Position numbers and translations under genes: made by a program
DNA from: Escherichia coli
Lineage (GTDB): Bacteria > Pseudomonadota > Gammaproteobacteria > Enterobacterales > Enterobacteriaceae
NCBI RefSeq assembly: GCF_030013595.1
Contig: NZ_CP122768.1
Strand: one strand, 5' to 3'
DNA: 64,000 nucleotides
Shown: piece by piece, positions 16,255 to 53,324 of the stretch
Layout of the letters: every line of letters begins with the position of its first letter
How positions within the stretch are numbered: the first letter of the stretch is position 1
Notes under the pieces: generated by a model
Database searches by the model: none
What the model was told of the DNA's origin: nothing
What the model saw: only the letters and a program-made list of their open reading frames with translations

Positions 16255-16309
16255 GGTGATGCTGCCAACTTACTGATTTAGTGTATGATGGTGTTTTTGA
16301 GGTGCTCCA

Positions 16310-17007: not shown

Positions 17008-17022
17008 GTTGGAGTCATTACC

Positions 17023-18211: not shown

Positions 18212-18240
18212 AAAAAAGCGCCCACTAGAGGCGCTTTAAT
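18212..18240. terminator. bidirectional rho-independent terminator between convergent helicase and lysis/structural operons
   Basis: stem AGCGCC/GGCGCT with 7-nt loop, A-run upstream and T-rich tract downstream. Confidence 0.45.
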
Positions 18241-20144: not shown

Positions 20145-20249
20145 TACGCCCCCGATATTTTTATATAGTTTAATGGCAAAATTATTTAGATAAAAATAAT
20201 CCCGCCTAACTCAAAAGAATTAAGCGGGATTTATTATTAAAATTAAATT

Positions 20250-28845: not shown

Positions 28846-29352
28846 TTAAGAGATTTTCAAAGTCTGCTTAGTGCCAGTCTTCTTAATGTTGGTAAGGAAA
28901 GCAGCCGGAGGATTGCTTAACCAGTAATAATGAAAACCACTTTGCATACTGTTATAAGGAACAGTGACAGCAGCACCACCCAAATTAACGGTTATATTCC
29001 CCGCTCTACCGTTCTGGAGATATACAGCCATAGTAGGAGTACCACCATTGAATTGACCAACGATAACGCCAATCAGACGCCCTACGCCCACGTTTTCGGG
29101 GTTCTCCATAGATCCTTTACCGCGCATGTCAGTTACTGGATAGTTTGAAGCAGTTACACCCCAGTTATTACCCAATGAAGTAGACCACGCAGCAGTAGCT
29201 ACAACCGTATCCATACCACGACCACACATCGCGCTCATATTACCAGGTACACCAACTTTTAACGCTTGCATAGCCTCACGCATCCATCTCTTGCCAGTTA
29301 CAGAAACAGCCGATGATCCGACCCAGCCGGGCTTATTAACGACATTTGCCAT
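28846..29352 (-). CDS. hypothetical tail protein
   Basis: 168 aa, RBS GGAG before the ATG, tail module context. Confidence 0.45.
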   Translation of the reverse strand: MANVVNKPGWVGSSAVSVTGKRWMREAMQALKVGVPGNMSAMCGRGMDTVVATAAWSTSLGNNWGVTASNYPVTDMRGKGSMENPENVGVGRLIGVIVGQFNGGTPTMAVYLQNGRAGNITVNLGGAAVTVPYNSMQSGFHYYWLSNPPAAFLTNIKKTGTKQTLKIS

Positions 29353-29365
29353 TTTTATTACTCCA

Positions 29366-29397
29366 ATAAAAAAGCCCCACCATTAAGGCAGGGCTTA
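29366..29397 (-). terminator. rho-independent terminator (copy 1 of a triplicated element)
   Basis: minus strand AAGCCCTGCC-TTAAT-GGTGGGGCTT followed by TTTTTT. Confidence 0.5.
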
Positions 29398-29403
29398 TAA
29401 TTA

Positions 29404-29526
29404 ATCTTTAGCCTTGCGGCTTCGTTTAGCTGTGGCTTTCGCCGTAACAACCTCTAATTCTGGAATCACCACCGCTTCATGTTCCGGCTGTGGTTCCGGT
29501 TCTATTAAAGGAAGTTCTTCGTTAGT
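29404..29526 (-). other. in-frame post-TGA extension ORF (41 codons) downstream of putative major tail gene
   Basis: translation continues in frame after the TGA stop: TNEELPLIEPEPQPEHEAVVIPELEVVTAKATAKRSRKAKD, ending TAA just before the terminator. Confidence 0.3.
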
Positions 29527-30003
29527 TCATCCGGCAGTATTGAAGATTTCCTGTTTCAGCGGTTTGCCGTCCACTGCAAAGGTAAACTCTTTAGTTACCA
29601 CTTCTTCATCGCCACCGTTCATAGCAACTTTAGAAATAAAGCCGTTGAAAGCGGTGCGAATACCAGTCTGTTTTCCGGCGTCAACATAATACTCTATTTT
29701 GATTTGTACTCTTGTGCCGTCTTCGGCAGCTTTGATCAATTTTTCGTGGACACTATCCCCGGGGATGTAATTCACCGTAAGAGTCAGATCAGGAACATTC
29801 AGTTTACCTACTAGTTTACGGTTATACTGAGAAGAGAAGGATTTAACTTCTACAGTACCGCGCTCGATACCAGTTTCAGGAAAACCAGCACACTCTTTAA
29901 TTTCTTCATAGCCCTCATGGTTGAGAGTGGTGTTAGTGGTATCGGCGTGATAGAACAGACTTACCAGACCACCAGTAAAAATATCTTTAAATTGCTGAGA
30001 CAT
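29527..30003 (-). CDS. putative major tail (tube) protein
   Basis: 158 aa, followed by a strong terminator as expected for an abundant structural protein; assignment by size and context only. Confidence 0.45.
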   Translation of the reverse strand: MSQQFKDIFTGGLVSLFYHADTTNTTLNHEGYEEIKECAGFPETGIERGTVEVKSFSSQYNRKLVGKLNVPDLTLTVNYIPGDSVHEKLIKAAEDGTRVQIKIEYYVDAGKQTGIRTAFNGFISKVAMNGGDEEVVTKEFTFAVDGKPLKQEIFNTAG

Positions 30004-30058
30004 AGAATTACCCCTTAATTAAATTGTTATTACGGGGGAACTAGTCCCCCGACTTTTA

Positions 30059-33000
30059 TTATTTAGTTGCTTTGAGTTCGGCAATTTCTTTCTGTAATGC
30101 TTCGATCTGGGCTTTATATTTGGCGTCCATTTCCTGAATAGCTTTAATAATCAAGGCATTAACAGCGGAGTTAGAAATAGTCTTAATTGCTTCTGGATTT
30201 TCTGGATCTTCGGTGGATTGAATACCTACTGCTTCCGGCAACACTTCTTCCAGATCCTGAGCAATAATACCTACTTCGCGTTTAATCACTGTGTCATCAG
30301 AAAGAGATTTAACTTTATCGTAGGTGTAGACTTTCAGGGAGTTTACTTTCTCTAATGCGCCGTCCTGTAATTCTTCCTTGTTGATTTTAAGGCGAGCATC
30401 AGAACGAATGTACACATCGTTAAAGCTACCGTTTCTGGATGCGCTTAAATCACCAGCCGCGTTAAAGTCAAACGTTGCATCGTGTACGTGCATACGCACC
30501 ATAGCATTTCCGATAGTACCGCTAGGAACATGTACACCCATTGCTGCGATATGATATTTACCTTGATGGGTTGCTTTCCATACGTTATGAGCGGAATCGG
30601 TTGATTGTTGACAGTCGACCTGAATACCAGAAGCACGATCACGCCAGCTAGTCCAACTACCACCAGCAACGCTACCACGAATAAGACCATTACCGCCACC
30701 GGATACAGTGCCCGTTTCAAGGTGAATCATCTTACCGCCGAATTTCCAGACTTCGGTTTGTTTCTCACCACGGAAGCGAATAACACCAGCGTCATCGCAA
30801 TACATCAAGCCCAACTCTAAACCGTTTGGATCTCTAAACCAGATGTGCTTATTGCCAGCGCGTTTAAACGTAATATCAGCACCAGTTGTTGTGATATTGC
30901 TAGCAACGTTTAGACTACCCGCCATAGAGAACAGAATAGGTCCAGTGCCACCCTGAGTACGTTCAGTATACCAGTGATAACTTGTAGCATCCTTACATTC
31001 AAAAACCTGTTTGCGTTGCTCGTTACCCCATGTATGGAGACTAAATTGCGAAGAAGAACCACGGTTAGCATCAAATGCAATTTCACCAGATTCTACACGT
31101 ACAAAGCCTCTAAAACGTGTTGTTATGTTACCAGTACCCATAGCACGTTCAGTGATAAAATGTGCGCCCTGACTGTCTTCAATCTGTAGGATGTTATCGC
31201 GACCGTTATTGCTATCGCCCCAATGGTTAAACCGGAAGTAATCGCGGGAATTTAATCGCCCAGCGTCGAAAGTCAAATGCCCTTTCTTAATGTAAACGTC
31301 ATTACTAAAGCGAGCGGCTTTGCTTGCACGTTCTAAGACTAATGCACCTTCGTTACCATCACCACCCAAAGTAACATTACCGCTACCAAGATGGTAAATG
31401 AACGGACGATAGCCGTTCCAACTACCAAGTTTATCATTTTCGGCAGTAGACAGAAGATATACGTTTTGACCATCATTACGCCAGAATGCACCATAATTAC
31501 CGTAGATCATGCGGTAAGCGTCGCTATTCATTGAGATGAATTGAGCGTTAGTATAAACTCGTTTTGTGTTACCGGTTGCAAGTTCGATCTGTCCGTCTAT
31601 GTGGTGACGAATAGAAGTACCACCTACATCACTATACCATTCAAAAACGTTAGTATCAGCATTACCATAACCGATCCACCCTTGACGGGTAATAGATCCA
31701 GTCCGATTATCTTGAAACGTAATATGGTTGGATTGACCAGCAGGACGCCGCAAGGTAATAACATTACTACCGCCACCCAACATCATTCGACCAGAAAGAA
31801 TATTACCTTTATGAGTCCCAGCAATAGAGCTACTAGATTCAACGGTTAGAATCTCCTGAGCATCTGTACTACCCGTGGCGAGTCGATAAGTAGAACCCTG
31901 AACCGTCTCATGCCAGATCATTTCATTATAGTTACTGCGGAATTTACGAATATATTTCCGACCAGTACCCCTATCATTACTCAAGTGAACAATATCATAA
32001 CTATTTTGTGTGTTATCGTCAAAACTCAACACACCTCGTTTGTTTTCGGTGTTGAAAAGAGTAATGATGCGCCCATCAATAACACCAACAGAAGGTTTAA
32101 TTAACGTGGCTTCCGGTGTATCGTGAACAGTCAGATTAACATAAACACTTTTACCAAATTCAACAATAACGTTATCAGTGTAACGCTGATATTTCACATA
32201 AATGTCATAGTTATCACCGGATGTATTGACGGCAAATACATCAAAATCTTTGACGGTATTTCGACGATATGCAACTACGTTAAGTCCTTTAGGTCTATCG
32301 TTACCACTACGGAGAAGAATTTCTACTACATCAACTTGGTCATATGCCGTAACGTTGTAACCATTACCACCATGAATACGGAAAAACACACTACGCCCGT
32401 TTTGTGGAATTGTTGCGGTTGCCAATTTGAAATATGCAGATACGTTTTCGCTAGAATTGGGAACAGACATAACGACGTTTTTAACAAACATCTTATCAAC
32501 TTCGGCTTTGGTGTATGCACCAATCTCGCCAGGAGTCGGCTTATCACCTTCGTGATACATCTTATAGCTAAAGTTCTTCTGTCCTTCTCTATCAAAACCA
32601 TAGGTTTCAACACGAGATCCACCAGACGCATAACGGAAAGTAAATCCGCGACCGTGAGCTTTACCGGCAGAGTGAGGAACGTTAAGAGTTAGATCCATGA
32701 GTCCATCTTGACCATTGGTACGGAAAGCACCAAAGTAGTTAAGATCTCTCGCTGTCTGGTCTTCCAAATAGTTAGCTGTTTTGGTTAACAGATACCCGCC
32801 ATGCTTAGTGTTGGTATTCTTCTTGATGTAAAGAGCATCGTTACTACCTTCAATACCATCAATTCGACGGTTAGCGGCTGCGATCGCTGAATCAGTATCA
32901 GTTTTGTTTTTGTCAACCTTTGCGTTAATAGCGGTATGGTTGCTATTCACCGTCCCTGTAAGGTTACTGATTTTAGTATCAACATCTTTCTTGTTGTCGG

Positions 33001-33520
33001 AAACGACCTTTTCAATCGCTGTTTTGTTAGCTGCAACCGTGCTAGTTAAGCTAGAAATTTTGTTATCTGCATCGGTTTTATTTGCAGTAACAGTTTTAGT
33101 CAAGTTGCTAACGTTGGTGTTAGTGGTATTAACTTTGTTGTTAATCGCGGTGTTATTGTCATTAACCGTCGTGGTTAAAGCTGCGATTTTATTGTCCGCA
33201 TCTCGTTTATTATTTGCTACAGTAGTTTCTATAGCTGATTTGTTAGATGCAACTGTCCCCGTAAGGTTATTGATCTTAGTATCAGCATCGGTTTTATTTG
33301 CCGCGATAGTCGCATCAGTAGTTTTCTTGTTATTGTCTACTTTTGTGTTTAAAGCATTATGACTTTCAGGAGAAACACTTACTTGAACTACTGCGTTATT
33401 TTTATCTTTGGTATAAATTACATGGTCTGCCATCTGAATAGCGATTTCACCGACCTGTAATTGTTCCGGCGTTGGCTTTTTACCAGCCGTCTGTGTGCGT
33501 TTAAATTGGATCGACTGCAT
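30059..33520 (-). CDS. side tail fiber with tandem repeats and C-terminal intramolecular chaperone (S74-like) domain
   Basis: 1153 aa; conserved fiber N-terminus (KPTPEQLQVGEIAI...YTKD), about five 28-29 aa repeats (ANKTDADTKINNLTGTV...), C-terminal DVYIRSDARLK ... GIIAQDLEEVLPEAV chaperone signature. Confidence 0.75.
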   Translation of the reverse strand: MQSIQFKRTQTAGKKPTPEQLQVGEIAIQMADHVIYTKDKNNAVVQVSVSPESHNALNTKVDNNKKTTDATIAANKTDADTKINNLTGTVASNKSAIETTVANNKRDADNKIAALTTTVNDNNTAINNKVNTTNTNVSNLTKTVTANKTDADNKISSLTSTVAANKTAIEKVVSDNKKDVDTKISNLTGTVNSNHTAINAKVDKNKTDTDSAIAAANRRIDGIEGSNDALYIKKNTNTKHGGYLLTKTANYLEDQTARDLNYFGAFRTNGQDGLMDLTLNVPHSAGKAHGRGFTFRYASGGSRVETYGFDREGQKNFSYKMYHEGDKPTPGEIGAYTKAEVDKMFVKNVVMSVPNSSENVSAYFKLATATIPQNGRSVFFRIHGGNGYNVTAYDQVDVVEILLRSGNDRPKGLNVVAYRRNTVKDFDVFAVNTSGDNYDIYVKYQRYTDNVIVEFGKSVYVNLTVHDTPEATLIKPSVGVIDGRIITLFNTENKRGVLSFDDNTQNSYDIVHLSNDRGTGRKYIRKFRSNYNEMIWHETVQGSTYRLATGSTDAQEILTVESSSSIAGTHKGNILSGRMMLGGGSNVITLRRPAGQSNHITFQDNRTGSITRQGWIGYGNADTNVFEWYSDVGGTSIRHHIDGQIELATGNTKRVYTNAQFISMNSDAYRMIYGNYGAFWRNDGQNVYLLSTAENDKLGSWNGYRPFIYHLGSGNVTLGGDGNEGALVLERASKAARFSNDVYIKKGHLTFDAGRLNSRDYFRFNHWGDSNNGRDNILQIEDSQGAHFITERAMGTGNITTRFRGFVRVESGEIAFDANRGSSSQFSLHTWGNEQRKQVFECKDATSYHWYTERTQGGTGPILFSMAGSLNVASNITTTGADITFKRAGNKHIWFRDPNGLELGLMYCDDAGVIRFRGEKQTEVWKFGGKMIHLETGTVSGGGNGLIRGSVAGGSWTSWRDRASGIQVDCQQSTDSAHNVWKATHQGKYHIAAMGVHVPSGTIGNAMVRMHVHDATFDFNAAGDLSASRNGSFNDVYIRSDARLKINKEELQDGALEKVNSLKVYTYDKVKSLSDDTVIKREVGIIAQDLEEVLPEAVGIQSTEDPENPEAIKTISNSAVNALIIKAIQEMDAKYKAQIEALQKEIAELKATK

Positions 33521-33597
33521 CGAATCACCTCACTATAAAACAGGAATAAGGGAGGCGTTAACCTCCCAACGTTCATGTTTTATTTAGGTACGCAATC

Positions 33598-34431
33598 TTA
33601 ATACTCACCGAAATCGATCCGGTCCGTCTTAGCCACTGCGCCAATTTCGGCTGGCGTAGGCTTCTCGTTTGTTGTATAGACTTTAATCCATTCCGATTTT
33701 CCGTTGTCCTGAATATTTCGTACCCGCAAACGTGGAGCACCGGAAGTATTACACGTTAATTGCCATGCGCCATGCTCATTAGCTTGAAGATGAATTAACG
33801 ATGTATCAGCACCATAAGGGTTAGTGCTAGCCGTTCCTTTGTAGGTTACAAAGCGGTTTCCTGTCAGAGATTCACTATCAATAGGTCCGGTGAATGGGCT
33901 AACGCCTGAGCCTACGCCAAAATCCCCTTGTCGGATGAGTTTTCCCTCGGTCGCTATACCCCTTGCTAGAATCCCGCCATCTGGTTCAAGTTTAAATTCC
34001 AGTGTTACAGCTTTGTTATCACTACCACGGGTTTTATGTGATGTGACGTAAGCATCGAATATACAAAAGTACCCTGTGTTAGCAGCACTATAGCCAGAGT
34101 TCACAACATAGAACATACGGAAGCGTAAAGGTGTTTTATCCTCTACCGCTTTCATCAACATTGCTTGATGTTCGTCATCCAGAACACGGTTTAACGTGAG
34201 TGTCGTCGGTTCCAGTCTACGATAACCAGCAAGTTTCCCCGTAGCGTCCTGATCGTACTCTTCCAGAGTTTCAATCTCTGTGGATTCTGTTAGCGTAGGG
34301 AATGCTGCGACGTTCTCAATAGAACTAAAGCTAGGATCGAAAAAGTCGACCTGATTGTCTAGCTGGTTAGAGATCGACACTTCAACATGCGATCCCGTAA
34401 AAATATCTAAGTTATCTTGTGTAATATTCAT
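33598..34431 (-). CDS. hypothetical structural protein
   Basis: 277 aa; C-terminal EKPTPAEIGAV motif echoes the fiber N-terminus. Confidence 0.4.
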   Translation of the reverse strand: MNITQDNLDIFTGSHVEVSISNQLDNQVDFFDPSFSSIENVAAFPTLTESTEIETLEEYDQDATGKLAGYRRLEPTTLTLNRVLDDEHQAMLMKAVEDKTPLRFRMFYVVNSGYSAANTGYFCIFDAYVTSHKTRGSDNKAVTLEFKLEPDGGILARGIATEGKLIRQGDFGVGSGVSPFTGPIDSESLTGNRFVTYKGTASTNPYGADTSLIHLQANEHGAWQLTCNTSGAPRLRVRNIQDNGKSEWIKVYTTNEKPTPAEIGAVAKTDRIDFGEY

Positions 34432-34440
34432 TATTACCCC

Positions 34441-34911
34441 TTAAAAACGCGCTAGATAAGAAAATTTAAGGCTAAGTGTCCCAACGATACCCCCATCACT
34501 AGAATCATCGTCATAATCGGTATTAGAAGCTACTGGAGTGATATCTGAAATTGAGAAGCCCAAATCTTTAAAACGTGGGTTATCCGGCTGAATCTGGATT
34601 ATCTGGCAAATACCCTCATGAATTTTGGTTTCATGAATCTGAGAATACAATTGCATTTCGATAACGCATTCAGCTTGCATTGCATTACCGCCACGGACCC
34701 TATTGTAAGTCTCATTCATTCCGGTGATCCAACAAACCACGTCATCACTAAAGCCTTGCTGAGTTTGTTCTACGTTTAAAGCCAGACCTAAATCTTGTTC
34801 GATAATATCCTGCAAGGCGCGTTTGATTTTCAGTCTAGGCATATTATTAACGGTAGCGAGCATGTGTACCCCCTGCCAGAGTGATAAAGCAATCAGTTGT
34901 ATTGTCACCAT
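34441..34911 (-). CDS. head-tail joining protein candidate
   Basis: 156 aa ORF in head-to-tail junction region; true start may be the internal Met. Confidence 0.35.
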   Translation of the reverse strand: MVTIQLIALSLWQGVHMLATVNNMPRLKIKRALQDIIEQDLGLALNVEQTQQGFSDDVVCWITGMNETYNRVRGGNAMQAECVIEMQLYSQIHETKIHEGICQIIQIQPDNPRFKDLGFSISDITPVASNTDYDDDSSDGGIVGTLSLKFSYLARF

Positions 34912-35137
34912 TGCGCTTAACGTATTGAACTTTGAAACGCTGATTTTCTACAGTGACAATATCACCCTGCTTTAAGTCTCCCTCACGACAAAATAGAAAT
35001 TCTGTCTCTGTCATTACCCCTGATTCGTCGGTAGTAGTAATTTCATGATAAGCACGAATTGATTTACCACCTTCCACCGAAAATACAGGAGCACTTCGGA
35101 ACATTCTTGATAATTGTGATTCTGATAATTTGAACAT
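34847..35137 (-). CDS. head-tail connector/completion protein candidate
   Basis: 96 aa with RBS GGGGG before the ATG, directly downstream of the capsid terminator. Confidence 0.4.
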   Translation of the reverse strand: MFKLSESQLSRMFRSAPVFSVEGGKSIRAYHEITTTDESGVMTETEFLFCREGDLKQGDIVTVENQRFKVQYVKRNGDNTTDCFITLAGGTHARYR

Positions 35138-35167
35138 AGTTACCCCCTTTATGGAGTATTTACATAC

Positions 35168-35196
35168 AAAAAAGCCCCACCGTTAGGCAGGGCTAA
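35168..35196 (-). terminator. rho-independent terminator (copy 2)
   Basis: minus strand AGCCCTGCC-TAAC-GGTGGGGCT followed by TTTTTT. Confidence 0.5.
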
Positions 35197-35202
35197 TTAT
35201 TA

Positions 35203-35286
35203 TTTTGCTTTCGGTGGACGTCCCACCTTTTTAGCTGTGGCTTTCGCCGTAACTACCGGAATTTCTTCCGGCAATTCTTCGTTATT
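35203..35286 (-). other. in-frame post-TGA extension ORF (28 codons) downstream of capsid gene
   Basis: NNEELPEEIPVVTAKATAKKVGRPPKAK after the TGA; shares NEELP and VVTAKATAK with the extension at 29404..29526. Confidence 0.3.
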
Positions 35287-37293
35287 TCACTCTTCGCCAA
35301 TTTTCAGAACTTTCAGAGCTTCCGGCTGTGCTACAACGTAGTCCAAATCTACAAAGATACGAGGCACTACCGCACCACGGTCACGGTATGTAGTTAGATC
35401 CATATCCAGTTCCAGACCGCCCCACTCACCGATGGTAATACCGGAGAAGTCACCCAGAACGATGTGGTCTGCCGGAATAACGCCAGAAGTAACTACTTCG
35501 TAACCAGCCAGTTTGCCGTTTTCGATGATATAACCGGAAACGCCGTTATCTTTCAGGGTAGATTCCAGTTCGGCAGCAGTTGCACCGCTCATTGCAAACT
35601 TGATCGCCTGAGCAGGAACGCCAGCGTCGGTCAGTGCTGCAATTTCTTTCAGGAAGTCTTTATAAGAGAAAGCAGCTTTCTTGGTAACGCGGCTAGCGTC
35701 TACCAGTTGCTTAACCAGACCAGCCGGACCACGAGCATTTTCTTTATCAGACAGAATCAGTTGTTCCAGTTTGATACGAACAGCTTTGTTAATGTGATCA
35801 GTGATCAGGGTAGCGATGCCCGGAACGGTTTTCAGCGACTGACGGCTGATCGGGTTGCCACCAGCAAAAGTTTTCGGAGACAGTTTCACGTTCGCAAATT
35901 CAGCTTTGCTTTCCGGTGCAGCACCGTTTTCATCAACGAAGCCGAAAGCGTCAACGCTGGAAGCGGTCATTTTTGGAATAGCGGTCGGGGAGTTCAAGCC
36001 ACTGTAAACAGTCACACCCAGACGACCCAGACACGAAGCAGGAAGCAGCATTTCGATGTAGGATTCAGTCATCAGTTTTTCGTCAGTGATAGCGGTCAGG
36101 TCGGCTTTGGTGTTACCAGCAGAAGCAGCACGCAGAGCAGCAGCCGGAACGAATACAGAGCCACCACGAGCAGCACGACCACGCTGCATAGTTGCAGTAG
36201 CAGCCATTGCGGAATATTCAGCTTCGTTAGCGCCGAGCACGTCGCCATCTACCAGGGAGCGGATTACGTTATTAAGATCGAAAGTTTTTTCCATGATTTG
36301 TTCCTTATTAATTTGTTCGTTATTACGTTGAGCATTGGTAATGTTATTTAGTGCCTTAGTGCGGAATGCTTCCGGCGTCATGTCTTTAATTGCCAATGCG
36401 CGTGCTAATTCAGAGTCATCAATATTTAGTTCGCGTGCAATTTCGCGAATTTCTAATTCGTCTTCTTCGGAACGTTCAGCCACTTCCTCGGTTTTTTCTT
36501 CTTCAACCGGAGCGGCTTCACGTTCTTCTTTTACTTCTTCTGTTTCCCGAACAGTTGAACTATCATCATCAACACTTTCAGGATGTTCAGCGTCTTTTCC
36601 GTCTTCGAGATTTTCATCTTCTTTATTCTCTTCAACTTGGCGCTCTTGAGTTTCTTCAACTTCCGGTTCTTTATTTTCTTCTACCGGAGTTTCTTCAACC
36701 TGAGCGGCTTCTTGTTCTTCTTTGATTTCTTCGATTTGTTCTTTAGTCATATCGCGTTTAGCCCCCAAATTAACTGTGATAGTATTTAGAGAGCGATTTA
36801 AACCGACCGTATCGTCTGCGGGCACCGACACCCATGAAATCTCGTGAGGAATCCATTTAGAAACAATGAGTTGCGATTTAGCGTAGTCGATGTGATATTC
36901 TTTAATGTCATAACCGACAGAAATTTTTTCCATCGTACCTTCAATGACTTTATTGCGAATATCATTAGCCAAAGTGCCATGCTTAGAGAATCTAACGGTC
37001 GCACGGCCTACGTTATCCGCATCGATTCGAGCGTTACAAACGACACCAATGTGATTATCGAAATTGTGATTGAACAGCAACGGAGCGTTATTATTCAGAC
37101 GAGACAGATCAACCGCTTCCGGTGTATGTACCAGAATTTCATCTAATACCACCATTTCTTGATTTTGCTCATCCCAAAATTGGCGCTGATAAGGCTGTGT
37201 ACTTGAGAAAGCAATTTCAAATTCGTATTGATCGTTATGCCCTTCATTAATAACTCCACCGTAACCGTTAAGATCGCGGCGAAATTTAAGCAT
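35287..37293 (-). CDS. prohead protease - scaffold - major capsid protein fusion
   Basis: 668 aa; N-terminal protease-like domain, central Glu-rich acidic linker (scaffold/delta-like), C-terminal HK97-like capsid region; directly downstream of portal. Confidence 0.65.
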   Translation of the reverse strand: MLKFRRDLNGYGGVINEGHNDQYEFEIAFSSTQPYQRQFWDEQNQEMVVLDEILVHTPEAVDLSRLNNNAPLLFNHNFDNHIGVVCNARIDADNVGRATVRFSKHGTLANDIRNKVIEGTMEKISVGYDIKEYHIDYAKSQLIVSKWIPHEISWVSVPADDTVGLNRSLNTITVNLGAKRDMTKEQIEEIKEEQEAAQVEETPVEENKEPEVEETQERQVEENKEDENLEDGKDAEHPESVDDDSSTVRETEEVKEEREAAPVEEEKTEEVAERSEEDELEIREIARELNIDDSELARALAIKDMTPEAFRTKALNNITNAQRNNEQINKEQIMEKTFDLNNVIRSLVDGDVLGANEAEYSAMAATATMQRGRAARGGSVFVPAAALRAASAGNTKADLTAITDEKLMTESYIEMLLPASCLGRLGVTVYSGLNSPTAIPKMTASSVDAFGFVDENGAAPESKAEFANVKLSPKTFAGGNPISRQSLKTVPGIATLITDHINKAVRIKLEQLILSDKENARGPAGLVKQLVDASRVTKKAAFSYKDFLKEIAALTDAGVPAQAIKFAMSGATAAELESTLKDNGVSGYIIENGKLAGYEVVTSGVIPADHIVLGDFSGITIGEWGGLELDMDLTTYRDRGAVVPRIFVDLDYVVAQPEALKVLKIGEE

Positions 37294-37338
37294 TTAATCA
37301 CCTTTAATTAATTGGGGGCATTGCGCCCCCGTTGGTTA

Positions 37339-38850
37339 TTAGGGATCGGCTGGGGAATTTTTTTCTTCACCCTCGCCATCAACGATAATATTTAGTGCGC
37401 TCTTTTCGGCTTGAATCTCTGAGAATACTTTTTCAGGATCATCACCACGTTCAAGAATAACGGCAGTACGTGATTTAAGTCCTTTATCAATTAAAGCAAT
37501 CTCGGCGCTTACGTCTTTAAATGGATCGACGGATTCAAAACGAGGACGAATAATAGTAGTGTTGTCGATAATATGCGGAATTGCAGTAATACGAATCGGA
37601 ACAATACCACGCGCGGAATAATGGCGTAGATATGCTTCGAAAATTGGCAATACCACTGTTTCAATCAATTTGTTTTGCAGTGCTTTAACTCGTGTGCGCT
37701 GGGTTAATTCACCGAAACGTGCGGCTGAGTAGTTGATCTGGCTAGTATCACCAGTCAAGCCCTGTTTAAACACGCCTAAGCCCATTGATACGCTAGTAAA
37801 CATCGCATCATTGAAGCTGTTAAAGTCATCACCGCTTTGCGTCGCCTGGATGCTCTTGATCGTTGCCCCTTCCGGCAATTCCTGAATAGTACCCGGTGCA
37901 AAATCCTGTACTACTTCCGGCGCTTGATATTGTTCATCCTCTTCACCAGTATCAAAATCGTCACCAGAATCTTTCGGACGTTCGATAAAGCCCATAGAAC
38001 TAGCCGCAATACGTTTCTGGACGATCGCAGTTTCGCGGAATGCGTCTTGATGTGCGATATCCTTAATCACTGGCAGGAAATCAGTCACACCACGCAGGGA
38101 TTCAGACGCAAGTGGTTGATAATAATGGAATACTTGCGAAGCATCGACGCGATAGTTATCACCTGTGTAAGTCTGAGTCAGTAGGTTGATTTTACGAAAC
38201 CAATATGCAACAGGGCGCATTGTTTCTACGTCATACTCGATCCCCTGATAGATAGCACGTTCTTTGCTTATTTCACGGTTTAGCGACCAGTCGCACTTAT
38301 CAGCAGACAGGATGGAAACATTTAACTCATTGTTTTCTTTGGTTAAAACGATGAAGCACTCACCACCCATAACGCGCTCACGTTCAGCCATTACCAGCAG
38401 TTCACGGAAGTTAAAGCGACCGTTACGAGAGAAGCGTTTAGCGTTCTGCGCCCACTTCCAGAAAGCATTCTCGATCTGCTTATTCAGTGCGCTATCAAGT
38501 TTGCCATTTGATTTAACGATTGACGGCTTCGGATCTAGGCCAGTACCTACCACCATATCGGTGATGTATTGCGTGTAGCGACTGCCAACGGAAGTGTTTA
38601 AGGCCAGAGTACGACCCTGATCATAAAGGCGCTCACCGTTCGATTTGAGAGCCTTATTGAAGGTTCCTGTAATGGTGTCTTGTTGAAGTGATCCATCAAT
38701 ACGATCACCAACCAGTCCTAAACTACGAGTCGCCAGAGATTTCTGGTATCTTTCTATAGATTTGTCGATGAAAATTTTTGGTTGTTGCTGGCGGTGATTA
38801 GTTTTAACTGGAGTTTCTACCGCCTTTTTGCGTCGAAAAAGATTAAACAT
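37339..38850 (-). CDS. portal protein
   Basis: 503 aa, size and position between terminase and capsid. Confidence 0.65.
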   Translation of the reverse strand: MFNLFRRKKAVETPVKTNHRQQQPKIFIDKSIERYQKSLATRSLGLVGDRIDGSLQQDTITGTFNKALKSNGERLYDQGRTLALNTSVGSRYTQYITDMVVGTGLDPKPSIVKSNGKLDSALNKQIENAFWKWAQNAKRFSRNGRFNFRELLVMAERERVMGGECFIVLTKENNELNVSILSADKCDWSLNREISKERAIYQGIEYDVETMRPVAYWFRKINLLTQTYTGDNYRVDASQVFHYYQPLASESLRGVTDFLPVIKDIAHQDAFRETAIVQKRIAASSMGFIERPKDSGDDFDTGEEDEQYQAPEVVQDFAPGTIQELPEGATIKSIQATQSGDDFNSFNDAMFTSVSMGLGVFKQGLTGDTSQINYSAARFGELTQRTRVKALQNKLIETVVLPIFEAYLRHYSARGIVPIRITAIPHIIDNTTIIRPRFESVDPFKDVSAEIALIDKGLKSRTAVILERGDDPEKVFSEIQAEKSALNIIVDGEGEEKNSPADP

Positions 38851-38860
38851 GATTTACCCC

Positions 38861-39355
38861 TTATCGCGTAAGACGTAATTTGATATTTTTAATCGGACTA
38901 ATTCCCTGTTTACGTCGTTCGGCTTGAATTAATTTAGATAACTGACGTTCATAATCAGTCTTCAATTGCTGGAGAACACCCAATGACTCATAGGCGAAAG
39001 TATTCCCTTTCACGGTCATTTGAGATAATGCGGCTTCGTCCCCAGATAGCCTGGCGAAAATAACTTGCTCGATTACAGAAATCGTTTCGCGCAGATGTTC
39101 TTTTTTGGATTGTTTGGCGAATACTGGCAAAACAGTTAATTCCTGCATTGATACCAGTTCTTCATCAAGAGTAATAACAATGGTCATCTTCCCTTCTGGA
39201 AAGTCTAACGTTTTAATCTCGTGATTTTCCGGTGCATCATCGACCTGATAGACAATGCCTTTGCTATTACCTACCTGAATTGTTACACCCTCTTCATTCG
39301 CAAGCGTGACTTTTTCGCCTTTACGAATTACTAAGGGAATTAGTTCTAAACTCAT
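38861..39355 (-). CDS. hypothetical protein between terminase and portal
   Basis: 164 aa ORF. Confidence 0.45.
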   Translation of the reverse strand: MSLELIPLVIRKGEKVTLANEEGVTIQVGNSKGIVYQVDDAPENHEIKTLDFPEGKMTIVITLDEELVSMQELTVLPVFAKQSKKEHLRETISVIEQVIFARLSGDEAALSQMTVKGNTFAYESLGVLQQLKTDYERQLSKLIQAERRKQGISPIKNIKLRLTR

Positions 39356-39427
39356 AATTACCCCTTATTTAATTGTTATTGGATTAACAATATTTAGGAG
39401 TAAGCCGCCCCGAAGGACGGCGAGTTA

Positions 39428-41332
39428 TTAGAACGATGTTACCCAGCTACGGCCTCTATTTGGGCGTCTGACGATGTTTTGACGTTGTGGTCGTGTGATT
39501 GGCTTAGTTTCTTCGATTTGCTCGTCAGATTGCGATTTAGGAGCTTCTACAGGTTCTTCTGGTTCACGGTTCAAACTATCTTTGATGGCTTCGAGTTTTT
39601 CCCATGACATTTTATTGAGTACATGACGAGAAGCAGCATAGGAATAAGCCAGGCAGTCCAACGCTTCGTTTCGTGTTTGTCCAACTTTTACCCAACGTGT
39701 GGTATTACCCTGCCGTTTCAACTGTTCAGAAAGCAATTGCTCGCAATAGTCATCAGGAACGTCACCAATCTGGAAGACAGTGTGAGGATCGCCATCTCTC
39801 AAGTTCCGGTTAATCATTTCACGGATCATCGTTTTAAGGTTGTTTACGCCCAGAATTTTAAGGGTAAAACCACCCGTTCTTGTGTCTTTTACCGGAAGGA
39901 TTGGTGCATCAACATTGCTTGCGCCTTTAATGGCGGTTAGATTTTGCCACCGACTACAGAATCGATAGATCACGTTTGTAGCTCGTCCGTTCGATGAGTC
40001 CACGAAAGCAGATAACATCGGGATTCGTTCACCGGATCGGGTATAGAATTTAGCTTTCAGGAAGTTGTAAAGCTGGTTATATGCTGGTGATTCGTGGCGT
40101 TCGCAGTTCACATCATAGAATGATCGGTGATCAACTACGCATAGCCCTTTACGAGAAATACCCAGCAAGGTAGATTCCAGACGGTCTTTTTGCTGGTCAA
40201 CTCCACCTACCAGAGCCAGTACATCATCAGGAATATTGTCTAGGCTAATATCAGTTTTCAGCGTTTCTAATTCGTCGGCTGTGCGGTCTTCGTTAAGATC
40301 ATCGAAGGTTTCACCGAGGACTGTATTGTAGAACGTTGCCAGGGACATATTCGCGTAGCTATCAGCAAAGTCCACCACACACGCACGGATAGAACTAAAC
40401 GGAGACATAAGGCGGTTAGCATGAAAACCGATTACTTCCGCGTTTGGTTCGGTGGCGACCCATTCTCCCTGTCCAACAGCACGTAGGCGATCACCCTCGG
40501 TCCAATCGGTTTCACATTCAGGGCAACGGTAAACGGCTGTATCTGGGTTGGGTAATGATTTACCGTTAATCGTATGCCAATCGAAATGTACGTTACTCCA
40601 TTCCATTACGTGCTTGTGTCCGCAATGCTGGCAAACGACATGATATTTTCTCTTATCCGAGAGTTCCCATTGTTGGTTAATCGCCCCATCACGAGCGGTT
40701 GGAGTGGAAGCAATTACGATCCTTGCATCTTCCCCGAAAGTGGTTGCGCGTTGTTCCGCTAGTTGGATCGGGTTCCCTTCGTCTGACTCATCAGCCGCAT
40801 CAACTTCATCAAGAATAATCAAAGGGAGTGTTTTACCGCGAAGATGTGACGGACTATTCAACGACATGAAATACATAAACGATCCGTTACGAAGCTGAAT
40901 AATCGATGAGTTGTTAACGGCATTGCGATCTGATTTGTCGGTGATCATCGCCTTTAATTCTGGTGTTGCCTCTAATACTGGCTTCACCTTACCAGCGATC
41001 CAAGAATTTAGTTCTCTAACGTTACTTTGCAACACCCCAATATTAGTAGGGTTACTCGCGATCCGATGGAAGATAATTCCGTTAAGAATCATGGTCTTAC
41101 CCAACTGTGCCGAACATTTAAACACAATTTTTCTACGGTCTTCGGTGATCGCGTCCATCATTCCACGTTGGAAGGGATGCAATTTAATTAGCGATCCGGC
41201 TTTAACACCATCGGTTGCAACTACATTAGCCTCTACCCATTCGCTAGGTTTCATCGTTTTAGGTGGGCGAATTGCCGCAGAGATATTTTTAAGAATCTTT
41301 TTTAATTTTGCCTTGTTCGAAATCAGTTTCAT
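39428..41332 (-). CDS. terminase large subunit (GpA-like)
   Basis: 634 aa; Walker A-like FKCSAQLGKTMILNG, acidic DE-rich nuclease region at C-terminus. Confidence 0.8.
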   Translation of the reverse strand: MKLISNKAKLKKILKNISAAIRPPKTMKPSEWVEANVVATDGVKAGSLIKLHPFQRGMMDAITEDRRKIVFKCSAQLGKTMILNGIIFHRIASNPTNIGVLQSNVRELNSWIAGKVKPVLEATPELKAMITDKSDRNAVNNSSIIQLRNGSFMYFMSLNSPSHLRGKTLPLIILDEVDAADESDEGNPIQLAEQRATTFGEDARIVIASTPTARDGAINQQWELSDKRKYHVVCQHCGHKHVMEWSNVHFDWHTINGKSLPNPDTAVYRCPECETDWTEGDRLRAVGQGEWVATEPNAEVIGFHANRLMSPFSSIRACVVDFADSYANMSLATFYNTVLGETFDDLNEDRTADELETLKTDISLDNIPDDVLALVGGVDQQKDRLESTLLGISRKGLCVVDHRSFYDVNCERHESPAYNQLYNFLKAKFYTRSGERIPMLSAFVDSSNGRATNVIYRFCSRWQNLTAIKGASNVDAPILPVKDTRTGGFTLKILGVNNLKTMIREMINRNLRDGDPHTVFQIGDVPDDYCEQLLSEQLKRQGNTTRWVKVGQTRNEALDCLAYSYAASRHVLNKMSWEKLEAIKDSLNREPEEPVEAPKSQSDEQIEETKPITRPQRQNIVRRPNRGRSWVTSF

Positions 41333-41498
41333 GTAATTACCCTCATTACGAAATATGAAGGTATTTATTAAATTGTTGATATTTTGATAAATATGGGTAT
41401 TAAGGCAGAGTTCTTTATGTCGGTTGACGATGGAGAACTTTTTCCGATAAAATGTAAGTCCTCTAAATAAAGGTGAACATTCACTTTAATTTGGAGAA

Positions 41499-41732
41499 AT
41501 GACTATGACTACTAAAGCTACTCGCGGTCGCCCTGCCCGTTATACTCGTGAACAGATGGCTGATATTGCCTACGCTTACTATACAGCGGATCGCGGGAAG
41601 GAAGCGAAAGAACAGATTCTTAGTGAACATGGGATTTCAGTAGCCCAATTCTATAAGAATATGAAGAAGTTAGACATTAAATTCTATGTTCAGATCGATG
41701 ACGGTCAGATCGTAGAAGCAACAGGTTTTTGA
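41499..41732 (+). CDS. small DNA-binding protein (paralog of 45446..45628)
   Basis: 77 aa; RGRPARYTRE ... pattern shared with MARPVKFTRE... of the paralog; own terminator downstream. Confidence 0.5.
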   Translation: MTMTTKATRGRPARYTREQMADIAYAYYTADRGKEAKEQILSEHGISVAQFYKNMKKLDIKFYVQIDDGQIVEATGF

Positions 41733-41740
41733 TTCTCTTT

Positions 41741-41765
41741 GCCACTCTTCGGAGTGGCTTTTTTG
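41741..41765 (+). terminator. rho-independent terminator
   Basis: GCCACTC-TTCG-GAGTGGC followed by TTTTTTG. Confidence 0.6.
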
Positions 41766-41844
41766 TATCTAAGTTATTGATTTTCTCGAACTTCACAATT
41801 TGTGGGAGTCGGGAAACATCCACAATTTGTGGGAGTTGGATAGT

Positions 41845-41872
41845 AAAAAGCCCCACCATTACGGCAGGGCTT
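41845..41872 (-). terminator. rho-independent terminator (copy 3)
   Basis: same AGCCCTGCC...GGTGGGGCT-TTTT element as at 29366 and 35168. Confidence 0.45.
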
Positions 41873-41876
41873 CTAA

Positions 41877-42428
41877 TCAGATTCCGAAGATGTCACATAG
41901 GTCGGCTGTGTGGCGTTCTTGTTTTGAATAGTAAATCCGTTCAGCTTCATATAACGTGATAGAATCATCATTAACGACGGTTTCAAACTCCCCTTCTATT
42001 ACCCTTTCTGTGTGCGCTTTACTGCGTAATTCGGCCTCTTCCATGCGATATAAGCCAATACAGATACTACCATATACACCATATTTTTTCTCGTCGAGAT
42101 GGCGACGACCTTTGCGTTGTTCGAACGGAAGATCGTAAGCGGTTATCTTTTTGCGGCGAACTCGATCATATCCACTCTCTTTGGCATCAATCATCATACT
42201 AATCAACATCCCACATTTAACAAGGGATTCAAGGCACTGACGAATAGAATTAGTTCTTGATTGTTTTAATTCTGGGTTAGGATCGTAATATGGATTATCT
42301 ATCCATGATTCATGAATAAGGAAATGTACGTCATCAGCCGTTAAAGGCCAACCACCAACACTTTCAACATCGGTCTTAGTACAATCAAACAGATCCAGAA
42401 TGAATTTCTTTTTGTGCGTCATTTTCAT
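41877..42428 (-). CDS. hypothetical protein
   Basis: 183 aa ORF. Confidence 0.45.
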   Translation of the reverse strand: MKMTHKKKFILDLFDCTKTDVESVGGWPLTADDVHFLIHESWIDNPYYDPNPELKQSRTNSIRQCLESLVKCGMLISMMIDAKESGYDRVRRKKITAYDLPFEQRKGRRHLDEKKYGVYGSICIGLYRMEEAELRSKAHTERVIEGEFETVVNDDSITLYEAERIYYSKQERHTADLCDIFGI

Positions 42429-42523
42429 AATGTTCTATCCTCAAAATACTTAAAAAGTACCATGCCGATTTTCGCGGCATGGTCAAAAAATCACCATACA
42501 CCCAATGGGCGTTTGGTTAAAAA

Positions 42524-43784: not shown

Positions 43785-43905
43785 GTTACATCCTCTTTAC
43801 AAATCTAGGTCAAATAGGTTCAAAGTTGTCAAGTGCGATAATCATAAAAAAGTTTGAAGATATTGTCAAATACCACTTGACAAGACACCAAAGGGTTGAC
43901 CTAAC

Positions 43906-44094: not shown

Positions 44095-44743
44095 TCTAAT
44101 ATTATTTATAAAGAGAAAATTCTTGTTATTATGAAAGGAGTGATCTGGTAGAGTCCAAAACTGGTCTGTACTTGAAAGGTGATTGGATTCAGTCGGGCAA
44201 AGCCCTCCTTCATGTTTTGATTAAATCATCATCAAAACGAAGAAGTATCTTTAGAATATAAGATCTTTCTTTTGGAGAAATAATAATCAGGAAGCAATTT
44301 GGCAACCGAAGGTTGCAATCCCGAAGGGATAACCAATACCTTTCTAGAAAGTGATTGTTACTCACTTCGTTCGTTTACTAGAATCAGTTATCATCTGGTA
44401 TTAAATCCCTTTCTAAGAAAATCCTTTCAAAAGTGATTCTCGATGCCACGCAGTGGCGTCGCAGACGTTTGGGAGTGAGCGAAGCGAGCGAGCAAACTAG
44501 TTAATTCCTTCTAAGACCATCTAGTATCATCTAGTTTAAATTAGTTGTTACTAGAAGCAATTGGTTGGCGCTTCGCGCAGTCGGGCTAAAGCCCTCCTAA
44601 TTATCTTTTTGGTTATTTGTTGTTTTTAGTTTTACACATGAGCGTAGCGAATGTGTTATATAATATCTATGCACGCCCAATCCCCCGCTTTTTCCCCTCA
44701 CTAAGTTAATGTTTTATAAAGAGTTTTTCTCACCAATCCTTTT

Positions 44744-44931
44744 CGGGGGCAAATTTCAGGGGCAAAAATTAGATTTTCAGGGGCAAAAATAGTGGGTTTC
44801 AGGGGCAAAAATGAGGGGCAAAATCACTGTTTCCCAGAATTTCAGGGGCAAAAATAGTGGGTTTCAGGGGCAAAAATGGGATGTGGAATCTAGGGGATTT
44901 TGGTTCAGGGGCAAAATTCAGGGGCAATTTT
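44744..44931. repeat. iteron-like direct-repeat array, about 9 copies of TTCAGGGGCAAAAAT at mostly 21-22 bp spacing
   Basis: copies at 44757, 44777, 44799, 44842, 44864, 44905, 44918 plus degenerate copies at 44745 and 44813; two 22-bp units AGTGGGTTTCAGGGGCAAAAAT are identical. Confidence 0.65.
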
Positions 44932-44968
44932 CATAGTGTAGGGCTAGTGTAGGTTTGAAAATCCTTTG

Positions 44969-47253: not shown

Positions 47254-47345
47254 AGTTTTATATCCTCTTAAAAGTTAAGCGGGGGATGTTCTCCCCCGTA
47301 GACGTTGACCATCAACATCTTTCATACATTTATTTATAACGCGTT

Positions 47346-47903: not shown

Positions 47904-48394
47904 TGGTTATCCTCCATTAAATTTGCGTAATTTTATTTATTGGTTTTACGCAAAATCTAAGCGCCTAAATCGCATTCTAACGAAGGGAAAGATCCAGTAA
48001 TGGTAAGGGCTAGGAAGTGGGTTAATAGTCGCGTAGCGACCGCGCTAGGACTGCACTGATCACGTTTTAAAATCTCACACGCACATCAAAAACCGGGGTG
48101 CCGAAAACTCGCTTTATCTGACCCCGATCCAGAACCTAAATCATTTGTCAAGTCTTTCCGATTCAGTAAAGGGGAACATGCATCTAAGCTAGAGAAGCTC
48201 ATAAAGACTAAGTATGAATGCGGTGTTGTTAGTCGGGATGATATGCGAGACGGTTACACTGAAACGCTACCATTTGAAGCATTGCCGGAGATCATCACTA
48301 TCACCAACAAAATGATAAGCGAAAGCATCCTCGTAAGTAATTGATTCCTAAGCCCTGTCCTTGTGATGGGGCTTTTTTATTGGAAAAATTTTAG

Positions 48395-49398: not shown

Positions 49399-49489
49399 GT
49401 CATTTATTGCCGGATGCGGCGTGACGCCTTACCCGGCCAACAATATCATGCAGATTCAATAAGTTGTGAGTAACCAGAAAACTGGCGTT

Positions 49490-52151: not shown

Positions 52152-53324
52152 ATGCGTCTGTTTTCTATTCCTCCACCCACGCTACTGGCGGGGTTTCTGG
52201 CGGTATTAATTGGCTACGCCAGTTCAGCGGCAATAATCTGGCAAGCAGCGATTGTCGCCGGAGCCACCACTGCACAAATCTCTGGCTGGATGACGGCGCT
52301 GGGGCTGGCAATGGGCGTCAGTACGCTGACTCTGACATTATGGTATCGCGTACCTGTTCTCACCGCATGGTCAACGCCTGGCGCGGCTTTGTTGGTCACC
52401 GGATTACAGGGACTAACACTTAACGAAGCCATCGGCGTTTTTATTGTCACCAACGCGTTAATAGTCCTCTGCGGCATAACGGGACTCTTTGCTCGTCTGA
52501 TGCGCATTATTCCGCACTCGCTTGCGGCGGCAATGCTTGCCGGGATTTTATTACGCTTTGGTTTACAGGCGTTTGCCAGTCTGGATGGTCAATCTACGTT
52601 GTGTGGAAGTATGTTGCTGGTATGGCTGGCAACCAAGGCCGTTGCGCCGCGCTATGCGGTAATTGCCGCGATGATTATTGGGGTCGTGATCGTTATCGCG
52701 CAAGGTGACGTTGTCACAACTGATGTTGTCTTTAAACCCGTTCTCCCCACTTATATTAGCCCTGATTTTTCGTTTGCTCACAGCCTGAGCGTTGCACTCC
52801 CCCTTTTTCTGGTGACGATGGCATCGCAAAACGCACCGGGTATCGCAGCAATGAAAGCCGCCGGATATTCAGCTCCTGTTTCGCCATTAATTGTATTTAC
52901 TGGATTGCTGGCACTGGTTTTTTCCCCTTTCGGCGTTTATTCCGTCGGTATTGCGGCAATCACCGCGGCTATTTGCCAAAGCCCGGAAGCGCATCCGGAT
53001 AAAGATCAACGTTGGCTGGCAGCTGCCGTTGCCGGCATTTTCTATTTGCTCGCAGGTTTGTTTGGTAGTGCCATTACCGGGATGATGGCTGCCCTGCCCG
53101 TAAGTTGGATCCAGATGCTGGCAGGTCTGGCGCTGTTAAGTACCATTGGCGGCAGTTTGTATCAGGCGCTGCATAATGAGCGTGAGCGAGACGCGGCGGT
53201 GGTGGCATTTCTGGTAACGGCAAGTGGATTGACGCTGGTCGGGATTGGTTCTGCGTTCTGGGGATTAATTGCCGGAGGCGTTTGTTACGTGGTGTTGAAT
53301 TTAATCGCTCACAGAAACCGATAA
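52152..53324 (+). CDS. ydcO: BenE-family benzoate transporter-like membrane protein YdcO
   Basis: ORF 52029..53324 trimmed to MRLFSIPPPTLLAG...; multi-TM. Confidence 0.8.
   Translation: MRLFSIPPPTLLAGFLAVLIGYASSAAIIWQAAIVAGATTAQISGWMTALGLAMGVSTLTLTLWYRVPVLTAWSTPGAALLVTGLQGLTLNEAIGVFIVTNALIVLCGITGLFARLMRIIPHSLAAAMLAGILLRFGLQAFASLDGQSTLCGSMLLVWLATKAVAPRYAVIAAMIIGVVIVIAQGDVVTTDVVFKPVLPTYISPDFSFAHSLSVALPLFLVTMASQNAPGIAAMKAAGYSAPVSPLIVFTGLLALVFSPFGVYSVGIAAITAAICQSPEAHPDKDQRWLAAAVAGIFYLLAGLFGSAITGMMAALPVSWIQMLAGLALLSTIGGSLYQALHNERERDAAVVAFLVTASGLTLVGIGSAFWGLIAGGVCYVVLNLIAHRNR

Follow-up and report, generated by a model that had tools for sequence, protein, structure and literature searches.

What do the near-identical hairpins that recur along a prophage of Escherichia coli do: do they end transcription, let part of it pass, or act on the RNA once it has been made? 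The question is raised by a stretch of 64,000 nucleotides (nt) of contig NZ_CP122768.1 (RefSeq assembly GCF_030013595.1), here called the window, in which a prophage of about 36 kb (approximately 12.4 to 48.4 kb) adjoins the host genes hicB, yncJ, and ydcP and has a GC content near 0.42, against 0.50 in the flanks. The original prediction had described three near-identical terminators that punctuate the late operon of this prophage and that may attenuate rather than fully stop transcription and so set protein stoichiometry. All three elements are present. They lie on the minus strand, the one that encodes the structural genes, and a fourth family member was found on the plus strand. Their coordinates, strands, and sequences are as follows.

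T1, 29396..29368, minus strand: AAGCCCTGCC-TTAAT-GGTGGGGC-TTTTTT
T2, 35195..35168, minus strand: TAGCCCTGCC-TAAC-GGTGGGGC-TTTTTT
T3, 41872..41845, minus strand: AAGCCCTGCC-GTAAT-GGTGGGGC-TTTTT
T4, 48350..48378, plus strand: AAGCCCTGTC-CTTGT-GATGGGGC-TTTTTT, then ATTGGA

The three minus-strand copies (29368-29396, 35168-35195, and 41845-41872) share the form (A/T)AGCCCTGCC, a loop of 4 to 5 nt, GGTGGGGC, and five or six T's. The formula first given for them needs correction in two minor details: the loops are 5, 4, and 5 nt long instead of always 4 nt, and T2 opens with TAG instead of AAG. In T4, one C-G pair of the stem is replaced by a T-A pair in a compensatory change, and the ATTGGA that follows its U tract is also found after that of T1, so that the two copies have the joint tail TTTTTTATTGGA. 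In dinucleotide shuffles of the window, 0.00 matches to the 24-mer pattern were expected at up to two mismatches; for a looser 21-mer with up to three mismatches, 4 matches were observed versus 0.21 expected, and no shuffle of the window reached 4. True hairpin copies are confined to the prophage part of the window, and the one loose three-mismatch match in host DNA, at 53091-53111, forms no hairpin.

We consider it likely that T1 to T4 are ordinary intrinsic (Rho-independent) terminators of the host RNA polymerase, that they form one family spread by duplication and gene conversion, and that T1 and T2 are leaky; actual termination, its efficiency, and its effect on protein ratios are predicted here from sequence. 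The stem consists of 9 to 10 pairs, with six G-C pairs and a tandem U.G/G.U, and closes a loop of 4 to 5 nt, where at least five pairs, at least three of them G-C, and a loop of 3 to 8 nt are looked for in an intrinsic terminator. The U tract follows directly on GGGGC (T6 in T1, T2, and T4; T5 in T3). Folding of the gene-strand RNA gave free energies of -17.6 kcal/mol for T1 (z score, -3.85), -17.2 kcal/mol for T2 (z score, -3.81), and -18.3 kcal/mol for T3 (z score, -3.97), with only 0 to 1 of 200 shuffles equally stable. The opposite strand has no U tract and folds more weakly (-11.6 kcal/mol), since A/C mismatches take the place of the two G.U pairs there. The strand-specific fold and the U tract therefore identify the elements as strand-specific RNA signals of textbook intrinsic-terminator design. 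All four copies begin 4 to 5 nt past the stop codon of an open reading frame (ORF) on the same strand and are co-directional with it, and a terminator scan placed T1 and T2 among its best-ranked minus-strand matches and also detected T4.

Under this explanation, the nascent minus-strand RNA would fold into the stem of 9 to 10 pairs, including the two G.U pairs, with 5 to 6 U's directly after it, and the weak rU:dA hybrid together with the hairpin would lead to transcript release. The elements are like E. coli-type intrinsic terminators in their GC-rich stem, loop length, U5-6 tract, and short A/T run before the stem, in their G.U-based strand-specific fold, and in their co-directional site a few nucleotides past a stop codon. 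There is no structural difference; what is unusual is that four sites within a 36-kb element have one stem sequence. A covariance-model scan of positions 11000 to 50000 (E value of ≤1) found no Rfam 15 family at any hairpin, and its sole near-match was a sub-threshold naRNA4, a REP-derived family, in host DNA at 49399-49438. An identity as REP or BIME elements was rejected, since each true copy has a U tract and true copies are absent from the host DNA of the window; a Chi-like identity was likewise rejected, GCTGGTGG being absent on inspection.

The U tract also bears on whether the hairpins are only RNA stability or processing elements, that is, 3' exonuclease barriers or RNase sites, that do not terminate transcription. 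This is very unlikely, since 5 to 6 U's stand directly after the stem in every family member and in every replacement hairpin of the relatives described below, and such a tract is needless for pure stability. The same genome provides an example of a hairpin without a U tract, in a second family of the form CGGGGG(N5-7)CCCCC(G/A), with copies 20 to 30 nt ahead of three start codons, those of the tube gene, the capsid gene, and an ORF of 94 amino acids (aa).

37313..37331, minus strand: G5/C5 hairpin CGGGGGC-GCAAT-GCCCCCA, without U tract, between the portal stop codon and the capsid ATG, present in all relatives
30033..30051, minus strand: G5/C5 hairpin CGGGGG-ACTAGTT-CCCCCG, without U tract, between the fiber stop codon and the tube ATG, present in relatives
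47280-47298, minus strand: third copy of the G5/C5 hairpin family, upstream of the 94-aa ORF

The conserved G5/C5 hairpins, together with T2 and T1, bracket the capsid and tube genes, the two most abundant structural genes, and this bracketing, which would suit stable processed mRNA segments, is the point in favor of a stability role; it suggests that the stability of individual mRNA segments plays a part as well. Known cases of hairpins that govern subunit ratios within operons are the terminator and stable segment after papA, the intercistronic hairpins of Rhodobacter pufBA, and the REP elements of malEFG. The likeness lies in a hairpin after the gene of a major structural subunit, an arrangement in which upstream mRNA accumulates and downstream genes get less. 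In contrast to the prophage elements, these systems rely largely on mRNA decay, and REP elements have no U tract and are host-wide repeats with their own consensus, whereas the prophage hairpin occurs only in the prophage part of the window.

How completely T1 and T2 could terminate transcription is constrained by their surroundings. The minus-strand genes and signals are arranged as follows, in the direction of transcription.

43869..43841, minus strand: promoter-like site of a first unit that comprises orf110, a Rha/Ant-like gene, orf183, and T3
42483..42459, minus strand: unrelated terminator between the Rha/Ant-like gene and orf183
41877..42428, minus strand: orf183 (183 aa), no family match, ends in TGA
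Next genes, minus strand: large terminase, head-tail joining protein, portal, protease-capsid fusion, then T2
35287..37293, minus strand: prohead protease/major capsid fusion gene (668 aa), Pfam Peptidase_S78 and Phage_capsid, phrog_617, ends in TGA
After T2, minus strand: orf96, orf156, a 277-aa tube-like protein, a gp37-like fiber, the 158-aa tube gene, then T1
29527..30003, minus strand: tail tube gene (158 aa), Pfam Phage_TTP_11/12, phrog_158, ends in TGA
After T1, minus strand: gp38-like adhesin, tail assembly chaperones, tape measure, distal tail proteins, a 1258-aa fiber, endolysin
20198..20231, minus strand: unrelated terminator after the 1258-aa fiber gene
18215..18237, minus strand: unrelated terminator after the endolysin gene, at the end of the late block

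T2 begins 92 nt past the TGA of the capsid gene (35287), and T1 begins 131 nt past the TGA of the tube gene (29527), which precedes the tail assembly chaperone and tape measure genes. The ATG of orf96 (35137) lies 30 nt beyond the U tract of T2 and that of the gp38-like gene (29352) 15 nt beyond the U tract of T1, and a promoter scan found no promoter-like site between T1 or T2 and the next gene, promoters further downstream being possible. Because the next genes are so close and no promoter was found in between, polymerase must pass T1 and T2, by leakage or by antitermination. About 20 more tail, baseplate, and lysis genes lie on the same strand downstream of T1 and T2, which accordingly have the placement of leaky intra-operon terminators, with downstream genes dependent on read-through. 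The proposal of attenuation instead of a full stop is thus sound for T1 and T2 and does not extend to T3. The same division applies to the description of the elements as punctuating the late operon: T1 and T2 do so, and T3 ends a separate upstream unit and faces a convergent plus-strand ORF.

If T1 and T2 are leaky terminators, they would stop only part of the polymerases within a late block of approximately 23 kb. The released capsid and tube messages would end in a stable protective 3' hairpin, which would favor those mRNAs, and the read-through polymerases would supply the head-completion, tail, baseplate, and lysis genes. Passage could instead be achieved if the terminators were efficient but overridden during lytic growth by phage antitermination, following the logic of lambda Q, their main role then being to silence the late genes in the lysogen and to block stray transcription, rather than to tune ratios. 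The element is indeed a prophage, several terminators stand along one long co-directional block in which no internal promoters were detected, and the abundant tube protein is encoded downstream of T2, which speaks against strong termination in lytic growth; many ORFs of the early region without a family match could, moreover, hide a regulator. Nevertheless, we regard antitermination as rather unlikely: no Q, N, or other antiterminator family was found with Pfam and PHROGs among the ORFs scanned, several of which had no match of any kind, no put- or nut-like RNA family was found with Rfam between 11 and 50 kb, and the candidate late promoter region described below has no terminator directly downstream. 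Lambda tR' with Q resembles the present arrangement in having a prophage terminator upstream of the terminase and structural genes, with the late genes as one long unit. Here, in contrast, no Q homologue or qut-like arrangement was found (Pfam, PHROGs, and ORFs scanned), and an opposite-strand gene, together with a convergent terminator, lies between T3 and the terminase gene.

T-phi of phage T7 and the general use of inefficient terminators in phage operons are the closest functional precedent for leaky T1 and T2. In T7, a single terminator stands right after the major capsid gene 10, and transcript levels fall downstream of it (PMC6938266). Phages commonly balance the expression of their genes by means of inefficient terminators, a use for which T7 has been cited (PMC9163698). 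T-phi is like T2 in directly following the gene for the most abundant virion protein in a long co-directional structural block, with tail genes still expressed. It acts on T7 RNA polymerase, whereas the prophage elements have a host-polymerase design, and T7 has one such site, whereas the prophage has a second copy after the tube gene and two more that end other units.

Relatives of the prophage were compared in 41 sequences, namely the window, 7 annotated E. coli loci (L001 to L007), and 33 IMG/VR loci (L128 to L160) with capsid identities of 89 to 97%. The T2 hairpin is present in 41 of 41 sequences with an almost invariant stem and an unchanged U tract, while its loop occurs as TAAC, TTAAT, TTAAC, TTAT, or GTTATT and the adjacent coding extension is highly variable. 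The T1 hairpin is present in 22 of the 41, one of which differs in its U tract (T5). Twelve of the remaining loci carry a different terminator at the T1 slot, AGCCATCC-TTCG-GGGTGGCT-T6, and in ten of these that were examined the tube allele is diverged (58 to 60% identity), ends in TAA, and has no extension. At the T3 slot, the T1-like version is limited to the window and L001, and at least four different terminators end the Rha operon among relatives; L002 has an additional family member before the tape measure gene. Whatever its sequence, some terminator occupies both the slot past the tube gene and that at the Rha operon end in every one of the relatives. In phage DCP80 (capsid identity, 43%), an unrelated terminator lies approximately 130 nt past the capsid gene. 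Retention of the slot with replacement of its sequence is the strongest computational argument that termination, or at least a 3' hairpin with its U tract, is the selected function.

Several observations weigh against reading all of the elements as ordinary terminators that tune the late genes. T3 has five U's only, 2 to 3 of which could pair with upstream A's, and was not called by the terminator scan of the window. Covariation is thin: 92.7% of cells are paired (8 of 500 in the shuffle control), with little variation, as 6 of the 10 pairs never vary, the C-G to U-A change in T4 is the only pair changed on both sides, and the G.U to G-C change in L006, L146, and L335 is one-sided, although both changes preserve pairing. 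Covariation was therefore rejected as proof of structure, for which the case is mainly one of thermodynamics and placement. T2 comes after the low-copy portal and terminase genes, and the terminators alone therefore cannot set virion stoichiometry; the earlier idea about stoichiometry was only half adequate, since a terminator after the capsid gene cannot explain lower levels of portal and terminase. The gene for the abundant tube protein lies downstream of T2 and would be under-transcribed if T2 were efficient, so that high efficiency of T2 during lytic growth would require compensation by antitermination or by mRNA stability.

The DNA directly upstream of T1 and T2 has an unusual feature of its own. 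The stop codons of 27 minus-strand genes comprise 24 TAA, and TGA ends only the capsid gene, the tube gene, and orf183. After the first two of these, the reading frame remains open beyond the TGA.

29401..29526, minus strand: tube extension, in frame after TGA, 41 codons and TAA, with the peptide ending in VVTAKATAKRSRKAKD
35200..35286, minus strand: capsid extension, in frame after TGA, 28 codons and TAA, with the peptide NNEELPEEIPVVTAKATAKKVGRPPKAK

The capsid extension is open in 41 of 41 loci (28 to 45 codons; 20 distinct peptides) and the tube extension in 22 of 22 (36 to 41 codons; 12 distinct peptides). The stop context is TGA-A in every extension case, and the layout is an acidic proline-rich linker, VTAKATAK, and a basic tail, with every extension ending in V(T/K)AKAT(A/V)K(K/R) and the basic tail, then TAA. 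As originally claimed, two of the three minus-strand copies stand directly after the extension peptide: the T1 motif begins 4 nt past the TAA of the tube extension, and the T2 motif begins 4 nt past the end of the capsid extension, after a tandem TAA TAA. The same distance of 4 nt past the extension TAA is usual in relatives.

T1 and T2 are near identical because they are the ends of one duplicated 3' cassette, and it may be asked whether the recurrence of the hairpins has any further reason. They could be part of a portable cassette (leaky TGA, extension, and terminator) in which they serve as homology patches for mosaic recombination, and their recurrence could simply have resulted from the exchange of modules. 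Homology between the 3' regions of the tube and capsid genes extends from the TGA to the U tract, and the cassette is found on no fewer than three diverged alleles of the tube gene and on two of the capsid gene. L003 and L139 have the T1 loop in place of the T2 loop, which suggests gene conversion between T1 and T2 copies. T3 and the extra L002 copy accompany variable cargo genes, and the tail that T1 and T4 have in common also fits module exchange. We take this to be possible, at less than even probability: it accounts for the origin of the likeness and not for function, and it is compatible with leaky intrinsic terminators; moreover, slots with a replaced sequence keep a terminator, so that function appears to have been selected besides ancestry.

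The conservation of the open frame indicates that the C-terminal extension is translated, probably by read-through, and none of the records of the seven E. coli relatives (L001 to L007) carries an annotation for it. Programmed UGA read-through that places one common peptide on two virion proteins is a candidate mechanism, and Trp would be the residue expected at the UGA. Independent initiation of the extension was rejected, given that no start codon has a Shine-Dalgarno sequence and that conservation begins at the first codon after the TGA. A selenocysteine origin was rejected as well, as conservation starts right after the TGA; no formal SECIS search was made. In RNA phage Q-beta, protein A1 is made by read-through of the coat gene UGA. 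That gene is alike in being a structural gene that ends in UGA-A and in having an in-frame extension that opens with a proline-rich linker; Q-beta, however, is an RNA phage with one such gene, whereas this double-stranded DNA (dsDNA) prophage has two unrelated structural genes with homologous, putatively translated extensions. The capsid extension 10B of T7 is made by frameshifting and not by UGA read-through.

Further features were observed within the extensions. The capsid extension contains the palindrome GGTGGGACGTCCACC (35205-35232), which encodes VGRPP and has paired variants, GGCGGGTCGCCCGCC, in L128 to L160. Read on the plus strand, the palindrome gives a small hairpin with T5 after it, and thus resembles an antisense terminator (35213-35227); it is absent from other extension alleles and may be incidental. 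A 24-nt core common to both extensions holds a GGC-GAAA-GCC mini-hairpin with a GNRA loop (35238-35247 and 29433-29442, minus strand). One relative has GGA-GAAA-TCC, in which both changes are nonsynonymous yet compensatory, and another has GGT-GAAA-GCC, the tube extension of L002 being among the sites concerned. The capsid 3' region folds with a z score of -6.5. The sequence may thus be constrained as RNA in addition to being constrained by its coding function.

The close spacing of the extension stop codon and the hairpin raises, by analogy, the further idea that the cassette couples translational to transcriptional read-through. A lead ribosome halted at the UGA would leave 90 to 130 nt of bare RNA, in which the hairpin could form and terminate fully, whereas a ribosome that passed the UGA would reach the UAA 4 nt before the hairpin and cover its 5' arm, so that polymerase could continue downstream; the cassette would also give a small share of the capsid and tube subunits a basic peptide in common. 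For the E. coli terminator tR2, which is approximately 90% effective with a stop codon more than 30 bp off, moving the stop codon from 28 bp to 5 bp upstream reduced termination from approximately 90% to less than 10%, as a terminating ribosome at 5 bp masks the hairpin (PMC4824070). We nevertheless hold such coupling to be quite unlikely here, and its effect would be expected to be small, because ordinary terminator leakage probably exceeds UGA read-through.

T3 and T4 end units other than the late block. T3 lies 4 nt past the TGA of orf183. From T3 to the terminase ATG (41332) the distance is 513 nt, a stretch that includes an ORF on the opposite strand. Downstream of it follow two 16-nt direct repeats, a convergent terminator, a 77-aa plus-strand ORF, and a 72-nt stretch upstream of the terminase gene.

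41794-41836, minus strand: two direct copies of ACTCCCACAAATTGTG, 27 nt apart, straight after T3, each with the dyad CACAA-A-TTGTG
41741..41758, plus strand: terminator GCCACTC-TTCG-GAGTGGC and U6, which ends the 77-aa ORF (41499..41732) and is convergent with T3
41333..41404, minus strand: 72 nt upstream of the terminase ATG, with the dyad TATTTAT-N18-ATAAATA

The 16-nt repeats could be operator-like or packaging-related sites. The 72-nt stretch is nearly identical in 19 relatives compared, with different flanks, and a promoter scan found no good sigma-70 match in it; from its conservation, it is a candidate late promoter or regulatory region, perhaps an activator-dependent one. The conserved stretch and the convergent gene after T3 imply that the late block most likely starts at the 72-nt stretch. 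Thus, T3 most likely ends the preceding operon (orf110-Rha-orf183), which it would close against the convergent gene.

T4 points outward from the far right end of the prophage, where it comes after a small plus-strand ORF and is separated by approximately 17 nt from the stop codon (48395) of hicB, a host ORF. Its region is prophage specific, occurring in 44 of 5426 E. coli genomes, and T4 is kept at the end of a relative integrated in ycdX (L161, 3100-3128). It would close the small outward-facing gene and stop transcription leaving the prophage. The hicB reading frame seems to run into prophage DNA, which suggests that the prophage was inserted into the 3' end of hicB.

The stem itself is not peculiar to this prophage. 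In the form GCCCTGCC-N4-6-GGTGGGGCTTTT, it was found in at least 120 matching IMG/VR stretches from at least 59 unrelated contexts, on contigs with GC contents of 0.32 to 0.66. The Watson-Crick version with GGCAGGGC was found in 51 IMG/VR stretches (29 unrelated contexts) and that with GCCCCACC in 109 IMG/VR stretches; a control with the two wobble pairs swapped gave 0 IMG/VR matches. An unfavorable tandem G.U order may account for the lack of matches to the swapped arrangement. The tandem-wobble stem, GCCCTGCC...GGTGGGGC with T4 (here a run of four T's), is no rarer, with its at least 59 unrelated viral contexts, than either Watson-Crick version and is in slight excess over them. The idea of a special, widely spread element was rejected given this range of contexts and GC contents, and we conclude from these counts that the stem is a generic, favored terminator stem and not a dedicated element, the likeness of the copies within the prophage being attributed to shared ancestry. 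A short-query search with T1 gave weak scattered matches, typical of generic terminators. In an uncultured wastewater phage group, the stem follows a gene whose product ends in AAIGVQ, sometimes with the exact loop of T3, GTAAT; a large IMG/VR group with the same stem had no GenBank match.

Relatives of the prophage were found in 55 of 5426 complete E. coli genomes (approximately 1%); E. coli MEI003 (NZ_CP071263) and VTB96775v (NZ_CP178634) are examples of lysogens of this family. A nucleotide search of GenBank phages found no close cultured phage, the sole match being the gp37-like fiber gene, and the best match of the capsid protein has 43% identity. The tail operon holds two paralogous tail-tube-like genes, of 277 aa (33598-34431) and 158 aa (29527-30003), with the T-even-type gp37-like fiber gene (30059-33520) between them and the gp38-like adhesin gene (28846-29352) after the second. 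The fiber gene is 77 to 83% identical in DNA to those of RB49/Phi1-group phages, and the arrangement looks as if a receptor-binding module of a myovirus had been grafted into a tail operon of siphovirus type. The prophage integrase is a large serine integrase (13972-15666), and a phage helicase gene (15934-18210) is seemingly split by an insertion sequence with a transposase ORF at 16504-17007. About nine iteron-like repeats, TTTCAGGGGCAAAAAT, lie at 44742-44940, just upstream of strong plus-strand promoter-like sites at 44969 and 44997, and this array is a candidate replication origin or operator array.

If the explanation that we favor is true, little changes in general terms, as T1 to T4 would be ordinary terminators of a prophage family present in approximately 1% of complete E. 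coli genomes. Within that family, the terminators mark the ends of the capsid and tube messages and delimit the duplicated 3' cassette. The UGA-extension cassette is a more unusual feature than the hairpins themselves: as a case of programmed stop-codon read-through in a dsDNA phage it is a clean candidate, and it would offer a natural test of the effect of stop codon position on terminator efficiency.

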